Shown here: positions 36,538 to 41,651 of the stretch, piece after piece
Position numbering within the stretch: the stretch's first letter is position 1
Layout: the number at the start of each line of letters is the position of its first letter
Assembly: GCA_964585895.1 (NCBI GenBank)
Contig: CAZPFP010000002.1
Span: 1 to 43,121 of the forward strand
DNA from: an uncultured Gammaproteobacteria bacterium
GTDB lineage: Bacteria; Patescibacteriota; Microgenomatia; PFEM01; JAHIFH01
Direction: 5' to 3'
Length of the DNA: 43,121 bases
Notes under the pieces: generated by a model
The model's input: only the letters and a program-made list of their open reading frames with translations
Databases searched by the model: none
Told to the model about the DNA's origin: nothing
Program-made: the position numbers and the translations under genes

Positions 36538-37112
36538 TACTTTATTTTCTTACGCATCACAACATTATTATGACGAATAATTTTTTTCCTAGAGTCCGTT
36601 TTAAAAACAGATTCAAAGCCCAATCCTTTCCAAAGAGCTACCGAACCACAAGGGGTTTGATTGAGCGACCTTGGCTTTTCTACCGGATAGACATCAACCG
36701 TTCTGACTCCACGCCGCTTGAGATCGCGAAGAACATTCCTAATCAACCGCTTGGCTAAGCCTTTACCTCGATAATTAGTATCAACGGCAATACAGGTAAT
36801 ACACCAACCATTACGGGGAATCGGGGCGGTATCCTGATAAAAAATTCTCACCGTTTCAAATTCACTAATCGGTCCAAATTGAATATAGCCAACGGATTTT
36901 TGGCGCTTACCCCAAAGAAAAAGCTTACCCAAACTGCCCTCATATTTCTTAGCCCCTCTTACAAACCATTTTTTCTTTTGATTGACTAGATCGAGCTTGC
37001 CATCCATTTTGCACATCCAATAAAAACATTCTTGACAATTATAACGACGGTCAGCTGGGCGAGGAATTTGATCGAAGTTTTTAGCGTCAATGTCAACAAT
37101 TTTTACTTCCAC
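36537..37112 (-). CDS. GNAT-family N-acetyltransferase
   Basis: ORF track, 191 aa, with a GTG start. The acetyl-CoA loop is [14 protein letters not shown], and there is a Cys-rich N-terminus (CQECFYWMC). Confidence 0.75.
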
Positions 37113-37156
37113 AAGGTGATTTTACCAAATTTTAAGCTTGTTTTCCAGAAGGAGAA

Positions 37157-37486
37157 CTATCTTATAATCGCTCCCGGAGGCAGGTCAGGAGCAGGAACAA
37201 GCACCGCTTTGTTTTCGACTTCGGCACATAAAATCATTCCCTGGCTTTCCTCACCCATCATTTTCTTTGGTTCGAGATTGGTGACAAAGATAAAGTTTTT
37301 GTTGATTAAATCCTCCGGCTGATACCACTCCGCAATTCCCGCCAAAATTGTTCTTGGCTCTTTTTCCCCCAAATCAACTTTCATTTTAATTAGACTATGG
37401 CTTTCAGCAATTTTTTCGGCTTCCAAAACTTTACCAATACGTAAATCTAAACGCTGGAATTCGGAAAAAGAGATAAGATTACTCAT
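37157..37486 (-). CDS. tRNA-binding domain protein (CsaA/Trbp111/MetRS C-terminal-like)
   Basis: ORF track, 109 aa, with LDLRIGKVLEAEK...LEPKKMMGEESQGMIL. It overlaps the trpS stop by 4 nt. Confidence 0.8.
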   Translation of the reverse strand: MSNLISFSEFQRLDLRIGKVLEAEKIAESHSLIKMKVDLGEKEPRTILAGIAEWYQPEDLINKNFIFVTNLEPKKMMGEESQGMILCAEVENKAVLVPAPDLPPGAIIR

Positions 37487-38466
37487 AATAACCCCATTGC
37501 TTCCTTAGCTTCCTGAAGGGTTTGTTTAGCGATTTTCGAACAATATTTTCGCCCTTCCTCAAGAATTTTATCAACCTCTTCAGGGCGCCCTTCATAATAT
37601 TTCCTTCTTTTTTGGATTGGTTTTAATTCTTTATAAATGGCTTCAGCTAATTTATCCTTCAACTCAATATACTTAATTCCCTTACCCAAATATTGTCTCT
37701 CATATGACTGACGAGCTTTCCTACCCATAAATAATTCCACTAGCTTTAGTAAATTAGCCGCTCCGCCTTCTTTAGGAACTTCTCCCCCTTTACCAGTATC
37801 AGTTCGGGCTTTGGTTAACCTTGCTTTAATCGTTTTTAAATCATCAGTCAAAAGAATATGGCTACCTTCAATTGTTTTACTCATCTTTCCTTCTCCAGTT
37901 AAAGAAGGAATATATTCACCTTTAGTGGCAAATCTCTGCGGTTCAGGAAAAATAGGTTTAAACATCCGGTTAAACTTCCGGGCAATTTCCCTCGTCAATT
38001 CCAAATGGGGCTCCTGGTCAACCCCTACAGGCACTAACCCTGCTTTATAAATAAGGATGTCTGCCGCCATCAAGACCGGATAATATAAAAGTCCAAAATT
38101 AACATACTTGGGAAATTGGAGTTTTTTATCCTTATAAGTAGGCAGTTGTTCTAGTCGGGAAACCGGGTAAATTGTCCCAAAAAGATAAGCCAGCTCAACA
38201 TGCTCCGGTACTTGAGATTGAATCATTAAATGACATTTCTTAGGGTCTAAACCGGCACCAAGATAATCTAAAACCACTTCATGAACATCCTGCTGAAGGG
38301 TTTTAGGGTCATAGGGAGTGGTGATGCCATGTAAATCAACCACACCATAAATGCAGTCTAAATCTCCCTTCTCTTGAAGGGCAATGTAGCCTTTAATCCC
38401 GCCGAGATAATTGCCTAAATGCAATCTCCCGGTCGGTCTGGAACCTGAATAAACTCGTTTTTTCAT
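37483..38466 (-). CDS. trpS: Tryptophan--tRNA ligase
   Basis: ORF track, 327 aa. Class I motifs are HLGNYLG (HIGH) and KMSKT (KMSKS). Confidence 0.93.
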   Translation of the reverse strand: MKKRVYSGSRPTGRLHLGNYLGGIKGYIALQEKGDLDCIYGVVDLHGITTPYDPKTLQQDVHEVVLDYLGAGLDPKKCHLMIQSQVPEHVELAYLFGTIYPVSRLEQLPTYKDKKLQFPKYVNFGLLYYPVLMAADILIYKAGLVPVGVDQEPHLELTREIARKFNRMFKPIFPEPQRFATKGEYIPSLTGEGKMSKTIEGSHILLTDDLKTIKARLTKARTDTGKGGEVPKEGGAANLLKLVELFMGRKARQSYERQYLGKGIKYIELKDKLAEAIYKELKPIQKRRKYYEGRPEEVDKILEEGRKYCSKIAKQTLQEAKEAMGLL

Positions 38467-38467
38467 C

Positions 38468-38542
38468 TGGCAGGCCCGCCAGGGCTCGAACCTGGAATAA
38501 GGGTTTTGGAGACCCTCGTGATTCCAATTTCACCACGGGCCT
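38468..38542 (-). tRNA. tRNA-Trp (anticodon CCA), with 3' CCA encoded
   Basis: Hand-folded, 75 nt. Acceptor AGGCCCG/CGGGCCT. D arm GTGA-AATTGGAA-TCAC. Anticodon arm AGGGT-CTCCAAA-ACCCT. T arm CCAGG-TTCGAGC-CCTGG. Discriminator G plus CCA. Confidence 0.9.
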
Positions 38543-38550
38543 ATTTCCAC

Positions 38551-38578
38551 TAAAAAACTCGCCGCCGCTCGGCGAGTT
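38551..38578 (-). terminator. Intrinsic terminator/attenuator hairpin 9 nt upstream of tRNA-Trp
   Basis: Minus strand: AACTCGCCG-AGCGG-CGGCGAGTT (perfect 9-bp stem) running into a six-T run. Confidence 0.65.
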
Positions 38579-38608
38579 AACTTTTAATCCACGCAAACTC
38601 TCCGGCGG

Positions 38609-38668
38609 TTATTTACCGGTTAGTTTACCCCACCAAGAAAGAATTGTTTCCTTGATTTTTTCTAGCAT
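38609..38668 (-). CDS. Candidate 19-aa leader peptide with tandem Trp codons (MLEKIKETILSWWGKLTGK)
   Basis: Hand translation: ATG at 38668, TGG TGG at 38635-38630, TAA at 38611-38609. It starts 7 nt after a -10 box and ends directly at the attenuator segments. Confidence 0.55.
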   Translation of the reverse strand: MLEKIKETILSWWGKLTGK

Positions 38669-38675
38669 TGGGGAT

Positions 38676-38704
38676 ATTTTAACTCAGTTGAGAATTGGTG
38701 TCAA
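38676..38704 (-). promoter_or_regulatory. Sigma70-type promoter for the leader/tRNA-Trp/trpS unit
   Basis: Minus strand: TTGACA (38704-38699), an exact 17-nt spacer, then TAAAAT (38681-38676). Confidence 0.6.
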
Positions 38705-38716
38705 GTATGATAAAAT
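38688..38716 (+). promoter_or_regulatory. Sigma70-type promoter for the plus-strand CAT-tRNA pair
   Basis: TTGAGA (38688-38693), a 17-nt spacer, then TAAAAT (38711-38716). tRNA 1 starts 12 nt downstream. Confidence 0.55.
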
Positions 38717-38727
38717 TGCAGGCAACG

Positions 38728-38797
38728 TGCGGGGTAGTGTACGGTGGCACGTGAGGCTCATAATCTCACAGATCAGGTTCAACCCCTGACCCCGCAA
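38728..38797 (+). tRNA. tRNA with CAT anticodon (Met family; elongator vs initiator not resolved), compact 70 nt
   Basis: Hand-folded. Acceptor TGCGGGG/CCCCGCA. U8 A9. D arm GTGT-ACGGTG-GCAC. Anticodon arm TGAGG-CTCATAA-TCTCA. Variable loop CAGA. T arm TCAGG-TTCAACC-CCTGA. Discriminator A, with no encoded CCA. Confidence 0.65.
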
Positions 38798-38833
38798 CAC
38801 ATTCGACTCGCCCTTTCGGGCTCGCTCAGTGTT

Positions 38834-38875
38834 GTCCTGAGCCACTCGGTCCTGAGCGGTTCGACAGTCCTGAGC
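38834..38875 (+). repeat. Three direct copies of GTCCTGAGC in the inter-tRNA spacer
   Basis: Exact 9-mers at 38834-38842, 38849-38857 and 38867-38875, read directly. Confidence 0.8.
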
Positions 38876-38922
38876 TCACCGTCGAAGGACTCGTGGCCGA
38901 AGGGTTTGTCGAAAGGCAACCA

Positions 38923-38994
38923 GGCAGGGAGTAGGCTGGTGCCTTGGGACGTTTCATAAGCGTCTTTTAGTGGGTTCGAATCCCACCCCTGCTA
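38923..38994 (+). tRNA. tRNA with CAT anticodon (Met family; weak G1-U72 pair and A11:U24 hint at an initiator, not proven)
   Basis: Hand-folded, 72 nt. Acceptor GGCAGGG/CCCTGCT. D arm TAGG-CTGGTGC-CTTG (two wobbles). Anticodon arm GACGT-TTCATAA-GCGTC. T arm GTGGG-TTCGAAT-CCCAC. Position 8 is A, which is unusual. Confidence 0.6.
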
Positions 38995-39008
38995 CTAATT
39001 CTTTACTC

Positions 39009-40792: not shown

Positions 40793-40846
40793 ATTTAAAA
40801 TTAGAGAATTTTGTTAATAATAAATCCGCTTAGAGCGGTTTTTCAG

Positions 40847-40918
40847 TGCGCCCGCTTGGAATTGAACCAAGTACCTGTTGTTTATAAGACAACCGCTCTA
40901 CCAATGAGCTACGGGCGC
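40847..40918 (-). tRNA. tRNA-Ile (anticodon TAT)
   Basis: Hand-folded, 72 nt and canonical. Acceptor GCGCCCG. TA. D arm GCTC-ATTGGTA-GAGC. G26. Anticodon arm GTTGT-CTTATAA-ACAAC. Variable loop AGGTA. T arm CTTGG-TTCAATT-CCAAG. 3' acceptor CGGGCGC, discriminator A. Confidence 0.85.
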
Positions 40919-40924
40919 ATTTTT

Positions 40925-40963
40925 GATTGAAGAATCCCATTCTCACCGTTGAACTACGGGCCC
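40925..40963 (-). pseudogene. Truncated tRNA (5' half only)
   Basis: Minus strand: GGGCCCG TA GTTC AACGGTGA GAAT G GGATT CTTCAAT.., that is acceptor strand, D arm and the 5' side of an anticodon arm. No matching 3' stem, T arm or acceptor follows. It ends 6 nt before tRNA-Ile. Confidence 0.5.
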
Positions 40964-40979
40964 TGATTCAACCCTTTAA

Positions 40980-41651
40980 TTATATCATTTCCCCATAGTA
41001 ATCAGCAATCGCTTCTATCGCCATTAAAATTCTTTCCTTTAATGGTGTCTCGTAAACATACAGCCCACAAGTTCCGTGACCAAACCCTTTATGATCAATG
41101 TCTGCCTTTTTACTTTTTTTAACATAAGGCTTAATGAATTGAGAAAGAGGAATATTTAATTGCTTGCTCCAAAAATACTTCTCAATATCTATGTCCATAT
41201 CCTCATATAAATGCAGGTCTACTTTAATTTTTTTCTTAGGAATTTTAAGTGAACGAGTCATCCAATATAGCGTGAATTTAATCACTTGAGGATCACTGTT
41301 ATTGAGACCCACTTTATGATAAGTAGCTTTGGCACCTTCTCCCCAATAGAGGAAAAGTCCCGCAATAAAAAATTCTTTCTCAGAAAGCGGCAACCACTTT
41401 CTTTTTTCCTCGCTATAAAACCCCATCAATCTTTTTTCTCTCTTTCTCCTCATCGTCTCTCTAAATTTTTCTATTCTCGTTTCGCTCCGACCCCGAAGCT
41501 CATTAATCCTTTCCTTGCTTAATGGATAATCCCTCAGCCAATAACTTAAAGTGCTTTTGCTTACGCCAAGCGTTTTCTTTATTTGACTATAGCTCATTTT
41601 CTTCTTTAGCCTGAGCTCTAAGGCTTTTTGTCTTTCCTTTACTTTCGCCAT
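40980..41651 (-). CDS. HTH plus LAGLIDADG-like homing-endonuclease-family protein
   Basis: ORF track, 223 aa. The N-terminal HTH is MSYSQIKKTLGVSKSTLSYWLRD. FIAGLFLYWGEGAK resembles the LAGLIDADG dodecapeptide. Confidence 0.6.
   Translation of the reverse strand: MAKVKERQKALELRLKKKMSYSQIKKTLGVSKSTLSYWLRDYPLSKERINELRGRSETRIEKFRETMRRKREKRLMGFYSEEKRKWLPLSEKEFFIAGLFLYWGEGAKATYHKVGLNNSDPQVIKFTLYWMTRSLKIPKKKIKVDLHLYEDMDIDIEKYFWSKQLNIPLSQFIKPYVKKSKKADIDHKGFGHGTCGLYVYETPLKERILMAIEAIADYYGEMI

Follow-up and report, generated by a model that had tools for sequence, protein, structure and literature searches.

A candidate ribosome-mediated tryptophan attenuator ahead of tRNA-Trp and trpS in a patescibacterial contig

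Background

How might a bacterium with a tiny genome adjust its supply of tRNA-Trp, and of the enzyme that charges this tRNA, to the tryptophan that translation can draw on? Patescibacteria (the candidate phyla radiation, CPR) have tiny genomes, and gene regulation in them is little known. The question is raised by one locus in a 43,121-nucleotide stretch of DNA (contig CAZPFP010000002.1 of GenBank assembly GCA_964585895.1, positions 1 to 43,121), referred to here as the window. On its minus strand a promoter, a 19-codon open reading frame (ORF) with two adjacent tryptophan codons and a hairpin followed by a run of T precede tRNA-Trp(CCA) and trpS, the gene for tryptophan-tRNA ligase. A preliminary description, made from the sequence alone, had proposed that this element (here the WW leader, after its tandem Trp codons) is a tryptophan attenuator in which the ribosome translating the ORF determines whether the terminator forms. 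The classical leaders of this type, trpL and pheST of Escherichia coli, combine tandem regulatory codons, mutually exclusive 1:2, 2:3 and 3:4 helices, a stop codon between segments 1 and 2, and a terminator before the first gene.

Results and discussion

The WW leader and its recurrence

The WW leader is likely to be a ribosome-mediated leader-peptide transcription attenuator that gates tRNA-Trp and trpS by the supply of charged tRNA-Trp, a reading drawn from sequence comparison and folding models. It contains cognate codons in tandem, an intrinsic terminator with no later promoter, and a 2:3 helix that excludes both the terminator (3:4) and a 1:2 helix. Its geometry is that of an attenuator as well: six codons separate the Trp pair from the stop codon, and segment 2 begins 0-1 nt past the stop codon in all leaders except L027. 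Three lines of evidence sustain the core of the preliminary description, namely the conservation of the ORF, the conservation of the pairing and the switching of folds when ribosome positions are masked. The components that it had named, from promoter to trpS, are all present on the minus strand in the proposed order:

38699-38704, minus strand: -35 hexamer TTGACA, near-consensus; kept in nearly all related leaders, TCGACA in one
38676-38681, minus strand: -10 hexamer TAAAAT, with a 17-nt spacer from the -35 hexamer and 7 nt to the ATG
38609-38668, minus strand: 19-codon leader ORF MLEKIKETILSWWGKLTGK plus TAA (ATG at 38668, TAA at 38611-38609), without a Shine-Dalgarno sequence
38630-38635, minus strand: UGG UGG, the Trp pair at codons 12-13, where the ribosome is proposed to stall; invariant in 25 versions
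38615-38628, minus strand: segment 1, GUAAACU AA CCGGU (codons 14-18); it supplies the 5' arm of the anti-antiterminator hairpin (1:2)
38593-38608, minus strand: segment 2, CCGCCGG A GAGUU U GC, starting right after the stop codon
38570-38578, minus strand: segment 3, AACUCGCCG, serving the terminator as its 5' arm and the antiterminator as its 3' arm
38565-38569, minus strand: terminator loop AGCGG; in the extended antiterminator its GCGG and the CCGC of segment 2 form pairs
38552-38564, minus strand: segment 4, CGGCGAGUU, plus a six-U tract, forming the intrinsic terminator with segment 3
38468-38542, minus strand: tRNA-Trp(CCA) (ARAGORN; Rfam tRNA, 58.6 bits), the first gene of the proposed regulated unit
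37483-38466, minus strand: trpS, tryptophan-tRNA ligase (PF00579), without a Shine-Dalgarno sequence
37157-37486, minus strand: gene for a tRNA-binding-domain protein of 109 aa (PF01588, E 1e-28), its start overlapping the trpS stop (ATGA)

The sequence CCGCCGGAGAGTT abuts the stop codon of the leader ORF. Segment 2 has two alternative partners, segment 1 on the one hand and segment 3 together with the terminator loop on the other; it is non-coding, yet its conservation nearly equals that of the terminator. The terminator hairpin, AACTCGCCG-AGCGG-CGGCGAGTT at 38578-38556, has a stem of nine pairs in the consensus scan, six of them G-C, and its last two T lie within the six-T run at 38557-38552. 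The hairpin is as the preliminary description had it; only the end assigned to it, 38551, is the A after the T run. tRNA-Trp starts 9 nt past the U tract, which leaves no space for a promoter of its own, and the consensus scan for promoters and terminators, spanning 5.5 kb, found no promoter-like site between the terminator and tRNA-Trp. The trpS ATG, at 38466, lies 1 nt beyond the encoded CCA of tRNA-Trp. Because the element sits in a divergent intergenic region, with a tRNA-Met gene on the plus strand and tRNA-Trp on the minus strand, the terminator serves no upstream gene. The PF01588 gene directly follows trpS in six relatives too (L002, L005, L023, L027, L029 and L037) and is probably the last gene of the regulated unit, co-regulated with trpS.

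Could such an arrangement have arisen by chance? The leader promoter matches the consensus at 11 of 12 positions and is joint best, with one other, among the 15 promoter-like sites in the 5.5 kb scanned. The 126-nt leader has a minimum free energy (MFE) of -41.9 kcal/mol (z = -4.1), and none of 200 shuffled sequences folds as well. A scan of the whole 43-kb window for units of promoter, leaderless short ORF (its ATG 5-11 nt past the -10 hexamer) and terminator found none besides the WW leader. The observation is real and non-random, and the decisive point is its recurrence in 28 related loci.

These relatives were collected with TrpS as the anchor, from 10 close genome loci and 80 metagenome loci (individual loci are cited as L001 and so on). 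The 28 loci that carry the unit have TrpS proteins with 71-88% identity, and the shared unit runs from TTGACA through 17 nt, TAAAAT or TAGAAT, 7-10 nt, ATG and a short WW ORF to the terminator and tRNA-Trp. The related WW leaders with a retained terminator precede a tRNA-Trp gene without exception (28/28). The preliminary description had proposed, as a check, to look in relatives for a conserved small ORF with a Trp pair ahead of tRNA-Trp or trpS, and these loci have one. The named TrpS homologues belong to Patescibacteria, Microgenomates and Shapirobacteria, and the lineage of the window is therefore taken to be Patescibacteria; the label 'Gammaproteobacteria' on the records of the metagenome-assembled genomes clashes with these relatives and is suspected to be a submitter mislabel.

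Probable translation of the leader ORF

An attenuator of this type depends on a translated ORF, and the pattern of variation speaks to this point. The 25 distinct nucleotide versions of the ORF encode 23 distinct peptides, with as little as 53% nucleotide identity between pairs. All 25 versions are open in frame 0, compared with 0/25 and 3/25 in the two remaining frames. The ORF measures 60, 57 (L071) or 48 nt (L033), so that the variants of -3 and -12 nt are all in-frame, unlike the non-coding loop between segments 2 and 3, which is rich in indels. Summed column entropy at codon positions 1, 2 and 3 is 13.2, 7.9 and 15.9 (third above first above second), and the hydrophobic codons 5, 9 and 16 invariably have T in second position. 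TGG TGG is invariant (25/25), and exactly six codons and a stop follow it every time; even in L033, where the N-terminal part is four codons shorter and the Trp pair falls at codons 8-9, the distance to the stop is still six codons. The case that the ORF is translated is strong, though indirect.

The ORF is probably leaderless, the predicted transcription start lying at or near the ATG. The -10 hexamers of relatives (TAAAAT, TAGAAT or TAATAT) likewise stand 7-10 nt ahead of the ATG, and no Shine-Dalgarno sequence is present. Leaderless initiation is plausible in this lineage because other genes point to it: trpS of L005, L007 and L008 starts 6-10 nt past a -10 box, the trpS genes fused to tRNA-Trp lack a Shine-Dalgarno sequence, and the window has what is apparently a further leaderless gene, for a GNAT acetyltransferase, whose GTG (37112, minus strand) is 6 nt past a TG-extended -10 hexamer TAAAAT (37124-37119; region 37112-37147).

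A conserved ORF with its own promoter might also be an independent small-protein (or small-RNA) gene, in which case tRNA-Trp and trpS would be expressed through constitutive leakage of the terminator and the Trp pair would serve the function of the peptide. The conservation of the peptide beyond the Trp pair (basic residues, hydrophobic periodicity and a KLTGK tail) fits this explanation, as does the ORF of L047, which persists with a promoter and without attenuator segments; leader peptides and attenuator RNAs of Sinorhizobium can, moreover, act in trans (PMC7298713, PMC6614838). An essential tRNA and its aminoacyl-tRNA synthetase would, however, have to be supplied by leakage through a 9-bp G+C-rich terminator with six U and no promoter between. 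By a rough estimate that assumes ~1% Trp usage, the chance of tandem Trp in a 19-aa peptide beside Trp genes is ~0.2%. A plain small gene also has no need of a conserved non-coding segment 2 complementary to segments 1 and 3, nor of a stop codon always placed directly ahead of that segment (the insertion in L027, described below, apart). A free-standing small gene is thus an unlikely explanation of the WW leader.

Competing helices and ribosome positions

Between which structures would the leader choose? The MFE fold and the RNAalifold consensus both yield a 1:2 hairpin and the 3:4 terminator, with the stop codon in the 1:2 loop. In the 1:2 hairpin, GUAAACU..CCGGU of codons 14-18 pairs with GCCGG..AGUUUGC of segment 2. 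Pairing was counted over 21 aligned leaders (alignment A1), with the following results:

Helix 1:2, codons 14-18 with segment 2: 93.6% of cells paired; -16.3 kcal/mol in the window
Helix 1:2 as first described, UUGGUGG:CCGCCGG: 99.3% of cells paired; -8.1 kcal/mol
Helix 2:3 as first described, 8 of 9 positions: 90.4% of cells paired; -8.7 kcal/mol
Extended 2:3 antiterminator: -19.4 kcal/mol in the window
Helix 3:4, terminator: 98.9% of cells paired; -14.7 kcal/mol

As a control, slid registers are just 21-58% paired. The computed folds support the competing 2:3 and 3:4 structures on which the preliminary description had staked its proposal, and they modify two of its details. The antiterminator is longer than described, with CCGC of segment 2 pairing with GCGG of the terminator loop (-19.4 versus -8.7 kcal/mol); the mismatch in the shorter form is a U-G pair in 12 leaders, which makes that helix 9/9 there. 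The Trp codons themselves, which had been taken as segment 1, can indeed pair with segment 2, and the favoured partner is instead codons 14-18 (-16.3 versus -8.1 kcal/mol, and RNAalifold).

Two candidate pairings were set aside. The pairing of the Trp codons with segment 2, as segment 1, is the weaker one, and 500 of 500 shuffles reach its observed value; it is uninformative because G/U pairing tolerates every observed change. A hairpin within the ORF (hairpin A, nt 13-37, -6.8 kcal/mol) initially seemed conserved, through a concerted swap from K6/L10 to L6/K10; its pairing amounts to only 69.8%, its register differs from one group to the next, and the RNAalifold consensus lacks it.

Ribosome positions were represented by folding nascent transcripts that end before segment 4 with nucleotides forced unpaired up to +15 from the P site, the footprint size being an assumed value. 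When the mask stands for a ribosome stalled with its A site on the second UGG, all 22 leaders adopt the extended 2:3 helix as their MFE structure (-13 to -22 kcal/mol). A mask placed over the stop codon prevents 2:3 and allows nothing but weak structures (-2.5 to -9.8 kcal/mol), so that the terminator is free to form. In these models codons 12-16 would be the sole stall positions that cover segment 1 yet not segment 2, and the Trp pair would occupy the first two of them.

Any stall within codons 12-16 would be answered by the same three-helix geometry, and leaderless initiation may itself be condition-dependent. Both points suit a general translation-coupling attenuator, in which readthrough reports the availability or speed of ribosomes and not tryptophan. 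What distinguishes the two is specificity: TGG TGG is the sole invariant codon pair besides ATG and the stop and falls at the first two covering positions, the cargo is Trp-specific, and relatives carry a Trp T-box at the same locus. A general sensor of this kind is accordingly given only a very slim probability.

The proposed mechanism and observations against it

Attenuation by a ribosome stalled for want of charged tRNA-Trp, the preferred reading, would proceed as follows. Transcription would start at or within a few nt of the ATG, and a 70S ribosome would translate the leaderless ORF behind RNA polymerase. When Trp-tRNA-Trp is plentiful, the ribosome would reach the UAA in the 1:2 loop and cover segment 2, 3:4 would form and transcription would terminate at the U tract; a leader left untranslated would form 1:2 and terminate too. 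When Trp-tRNA-Trp is scarce, the ribosome would stall at UGG UGG with its front edge covering segment 1 and not segment 2. Segment 2 would then pair with segment 3 and the terminator loop, the terminator would be blocked, and polymerase would read through into tRNA-Trp and trpS. Release of the tRNA by RNase P and tRNA 3' processing would turn what follows it into a (near-)leaderless trpS mRNA. The loop would be homeostatic, as a lack of tryptophan, of tRNA-Trp or of TrpRS would each boost the output of tRNA and enzyme.

The same elements could be read in terms of the peptide and not the codons. A TnaC-like nascent-peptide sensor of free tryptophan would arrest near the stop codon at high tryptophan, cover segment 2 and bring about termination. 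TnaC has W at position 12, conserved Trp, Asp and C-terminal Pro residues at fixed spacing, and Rho-dependent termination. The WW peptide shares the W at position 12, is unusually conserved and keeps a fixed six-codon spacing from WW to stop, but it has neither a C-terminal Pro nor any other TnaC hallmark, its last codons being T-G-K, and its terminator is intrinsic. Its N-terminal length is not fixed, as L033 with WW at codons 8-9 demonstrates; much of the C-terminal conservation falls on paired RNA positions, and simple stalling already explains the geometry. Sensing of free tryptophan by an arrest peptide therefore also stands at the far low end of probability.

Several observations weigh against stalling at the Trp codons as the switch, or against parts of that mechanism. 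When the full-length window RNA is masked to nt 49, the inner 1:2 stem together with the terminator reaches -22.1 kcal/mol and the antiterminator -19.4 kcal/mol; because the terminator state is slightly favoured at equilibrium, the switch needs co-transcriptional kinetics or a footprint that extends to nt 50-54. Covariation is weak, with two double-sided changes in 30 pairs, shuffle controls that are not significant, and one clear compensatory change in 1:2 (L071, CCAGC/GUUGG). The tests fall short of significance because the leaders are too similar, and support was taken instead from conserved pairing potential, energies and the coding signature. The conservation of the peptide (K/R4, hydrophobic periodicity, KLTGK) exceeds that of most leader peptides; overlap with RNA structure accounts for only part of it, which leaves room for a second role of the peptide, in cis as an arrest peptide or in trans. 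The 7-10 nt between the -10 hexamer and the ATG imply a 5' untranslated region (UTR) of 1-3 nt in some versions. Finally, in L027 a hairpin insertion of 50 nt (73-125) separates the stop codon from segment 2, and L047 keeps an intact, diverged ORF while a second promoter and a T-box replace segments 2-4.

Variants of the locus and Trp T-boxes in relatives

How else is this locus arranged among relatives? In the window and most close relatives, the WW leader is followed by tRNA-Trp with trpS fused 1-13 nt behind the tRNA. In a second arrangement the WW leader and tRNA-Trp are followed by a separate promoter and Trp T-box, which precede trpS itself in L060 and, in L038, another gene with trpS behind it. 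The same T-box lies between tRNA-Trp and trpS in L043 and L050, where a 223-aa ORF replaces the attenuator upstream of the tRNA. In a third arrangement (L047), the WW ORF is followed by a second promoter, a T-box (41.2 bits, E 6e-8) and then tRNA-Trp, whose discriminator A73 matches the UGGU of the T-box. The Trp T-boxes of relatives, matched to Rfam RF00230, are located as follows:

L060, 1103-1304
L038, 569-771
L050, 1633-1833
L043, 1032-1232
L047, 190-410

They have a very short Stem I with a UUGGAA loop and a long Stem III, and score 41-65 bits against RF00230 (E 1e-7 to 1e-12), below the gathering score of 93. The T-box of L060, L038, L043 and L050 has the motif AAAGGUGGCACCGCGAG and scores 57-65 bits (60.2 in L043, 64.9 in L050; E 1e-10 to 1e-12). 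The preliminary description had regarded T-box control of trpS as a trait of Firmicutes; that view does not hold in a clade whose members carry Trp T-boxes at this very locus. The presence of two unrelated sensors of tRNA-Trp charging at one locus in the clade lends independent support to the proposed function of the WW leader, and is separate evidence of selection for the sensing of Trp-tRNA there.

In a fourth arrangement a different leader and a terminator precede tRNA-Trp and trpS (L009 ~95-298, L010 ~205-398, L066 ~800-1005, L086 ~480-683). The 5' half of these leaders is T-box-like, with a Stem I loop GGUUGGA followed by GACGGAGGC.AAACCGUA; the canonical GGUGGNACCGCG motif is missing and Rfam does not recognise them, and they may represent a divergent T-box class. 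In a fifth, a 223-aa ORF with an N-terminal helix-turn-helix (HTH) is present, which in L043 separates the leader ORF from the tRNA and in L050 and L085 immediately precedes the tRNA. A sixth (L005-L008) has no tRNA-Trp ahead of trpS, which has a plain leaderless promoter.

The 223-aa ORFs form a family of their own (PF13384), found in the window (40980-41651, minus strand), L043 (262-933), L050 and L085; the window and L043 members are 32% identical (E 2e-21). They lie immediately upstream of tRNA genes, of tRNA-Ile(UAU) in the window and of tRNA-Trp in L050 and L085, and the L043 ORF has displaced attenuator segments 2-4. The family has the look of a mobile gene with tRNA genes as its targets. 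In L042, short G+C-rich hairpin inserts flank tRNA-Trp on both sides (1547-1583, 1661-1715), and between tRNA-Trp and trpS there is a small ORF that we take, by eye, to be GIY-YIG-like.

With true Trp T-boxes at the same locus in relatives, the WW leader could be an RNA-only sensor derived from a T-box, to which uncharged tRNA-Trp would bind through anticodon:UGG and acceptor end:UGGN contacts, the latter in the antiterminator loop, the ORF being incidental. The terminators are suggestive in this respect: the terminators of WW leaders and of T-boxes share CTCGCC(N3-14)GGCGAGTTTT, in 24 loci that include L060 (964-983 and 1293-1318), and this CTCGCC...GGCGAGTTTT motif was not found elsewhere in the 102 fetched loci. 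A UGG is also present in the loop between segments 2 and 3 of every leader. Yet no Rfam T-box appears in the window even at E <= 10, and the window has neither a Stem I with K-turn and specifier loop nor a GGUGGNACCGCG motif. The conservation of frame, the in-frame indels and the fixed placement of the stop codon would be left unexplained, and binding of the RNA to tRNA-Trp without a ribosome is for these reasons very unlikely. The loop UGG was considered separately as a vestigial T-box bulge and rejected (window 38579-38592, minus strand; 21 aligned leaders): its position drifts, and the next base mismatches the tRNA discriminator (A in the window versus G). It may reflect chance in a G/U-rich loop or a vestige of T-box UGGN.

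Regulation by the translating ribosome remains the preferred reading of the WW leader, and the variants bear on how it may have evolved. The shared motif raises common ancestry of the expression platforms of WW leader and T-box (CTCGCC...GGCGAG plus U tract); the motif is short, and the idea is only a lead. The arrangements suggest that the original cargo of the leader was tRNA-Trp and that trpS joined it after losing its T-box; in relatives such as L060 the leader would govern tRNA-Trp alone, trpS having kept a promoter and Trp T-box of its own. The whole sequence of events, with tRNA-Trp as the primary and ancestral cargo, and with the T-box lost and trpS fused in the window subclade and made leaderless by tRNA processing, is put forward tentatively, at slightly less than an even chance.

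The junction itself is consistent with the last step. The trpS ATG lies 1-13 nt past the 3' end of tRNA-Trp, without a Shine-Dalgarno sequence (window 38464-38470, minus strand), at the fused junctions of L001-L004, L026-L029, L036, L037, L040, L041, L045, L101 and L102; in L085, L066 and L010 a 39-59-nt spacer with a GGAGG-type Shine-Dalgarno sequence precedes trpS. This spacing suggests that tRNA 3' processing may render the trpS mRNA (near-)leaderless, in the manner of mitochondrial 'tRNA punctuation'.

Neighbouring tRNA genes

Other tRNA genes of the window show features of their own. tRNA-Ile(UAU), whose anticodon is uncommon in bacteria, is encoded at 40846-40918 (minus strand) and also occurs in L002 and L005. 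Between it and the 223-aa ORF lies a tRNA-like 5' fragment, GGGCCCGTAGTTCAACGGTGAGAATGGGATTC (~40925-40960, minus strand), which may be the remnant of a disrupted or duplicated tRNA gene.

Two tRNA-Met genes of the window are separated by a 124-nt G+C-rich spacer (38799-38922, plus strand) with repeated CTCAGGAC-like motifs, which folds at -52.2 kcal/mol (z = -2.7). The spacer looks inserted, because the two tRNA-Met genes are just 4 nt apart in L001-L003; the pair is inverted in the window relative to L002-L004. The second gene, tRNA-Met(CAT) at 38923-38995 (plus strand), was called by ARAGORN but is not among the matches of the Rfam tRNA model at its gathering threshold; its D-arm region is unusual, and the gene is conserved in L008.

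Relation to known systems

Does the WW leader belong to a family already described? Rfam finds no leader, T-box or small-RNA family in the window at the gathering threshold, and a cmscan of 38440-38730 at E <= 10 returned the tRNA and chance-level matches alone, with no Trp, His, Leu or Thr leader and no T-box. These negatives exclude described families, not function.

In its mechanism the WW leader would be of the classical type. It shares all the leader features listed above for E. coli trpL and pheST; as in pheST, an aminoacyl-tRNA synthetase would be regulated, and as in the E. coli trp leader the switch may be kinetic. Unlike those leaders, its ORF has no Shine-Dalgarno sequence and, as predicted, no 5' UTR, its first regulated gene would be the cognate tRNA, the synthetase gene is fused to the 3' end of that tRNA, and it occurs in Patescibacteria. 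With the T-box (RF00230) it would share the sensing of tRNA-Trp charging and a terminator/antiterminator switch, besides the locus in relatives and the terminator-arm motif; it differs in that the window lacks Stem I, specifier loop and T-box motif, the proposed sensor being the translating ribosome.

Attenuators upstream of trpS and leuS have been predicted in Streptomyces (PMC1262725). Those of trpS resemble the WW leader in having a Trp-codon leader peptide and a terminator/antiterminator before trpS; unlike it, these are actinobacterial elements, the trpS that they control is apparently an auxiliary copy, their unit includes no tRNA gene, and no sequence relationship between the two was detected. 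Leaderless leader peptides have been reported upstream of genes for aminoacyl-tRNA synthetases and for the biosynthesis of amino acids in Deinococcus deserti (PMC4007540), and in mycobacteria leaderless poly-Cys upstream ORFs are reported to mediate Cys-responsive attenuation of operonic genes (bioRxiv 10.1101/834739). In these cases, as predicted for the WW leader, the transcription start site is the start codon of a short ORF rich in cognate codons, and attenuation is proposed or shown; the units described there are without tRNA cargo and come from other lineages. In Microgenomates, operons of tRNA-Trp and TrpRS have been noted, with leaders not mentioned (PMC5370408).

The novelty claimed in the preliminary description is narrowed by these precedents. 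A leaderless leader peptide is not new, given the case in D. deserti, nor is a synthetase as cargo, given Streptomyces trpS and pheST. The tRNA gene as cargo and the CPR lineage are without precedent in the literature found: a search that fell short on subscription journals turned up neither a tRNA gene under the control of an attenuator or T-box nor a description of such elements in Patescibacteria. As far as found, then, the new elements are a cargo that is a tRNA gene, the occurrence in the CPR and the fusion of trpS to the tRNA; the mechanism would be of the trp/pheST type.

Conclusions

If the proposed mechanism is true and tRNA-Trp is its primary cargo, the WW leader would be the first case of amino-acid-specific ribosome-stalling control of a tRNA gene, in which a ribosome awaiting Trp-tRNA-Trp would bring about the synthesis of more tRNA-Trp. 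The cargo of amino-acid-specific attenuation would widen from biosynthetic, transporter and synthetase genes to a tRNA gene, which suggests that tRNA supply may be tunable codon by codon. The relatives, some with a WW leader, some with a Trp T-box and some with the two in tandem, offer a natural series in which to study how two unrelated sensors of tRNA charging take each other's place, and the fusion of tRNA-Trp to trpS offers a testable bacterial case of tRNA processing that generates mRNA 5' ends. At ~120 nt the element suits coupled in vitro systems, although the organism is uncultured. For the CPR, it would represent a clear and conserved cis-regulatory switch, with leader-peptide attenuation operating there on a leaderless transcript.

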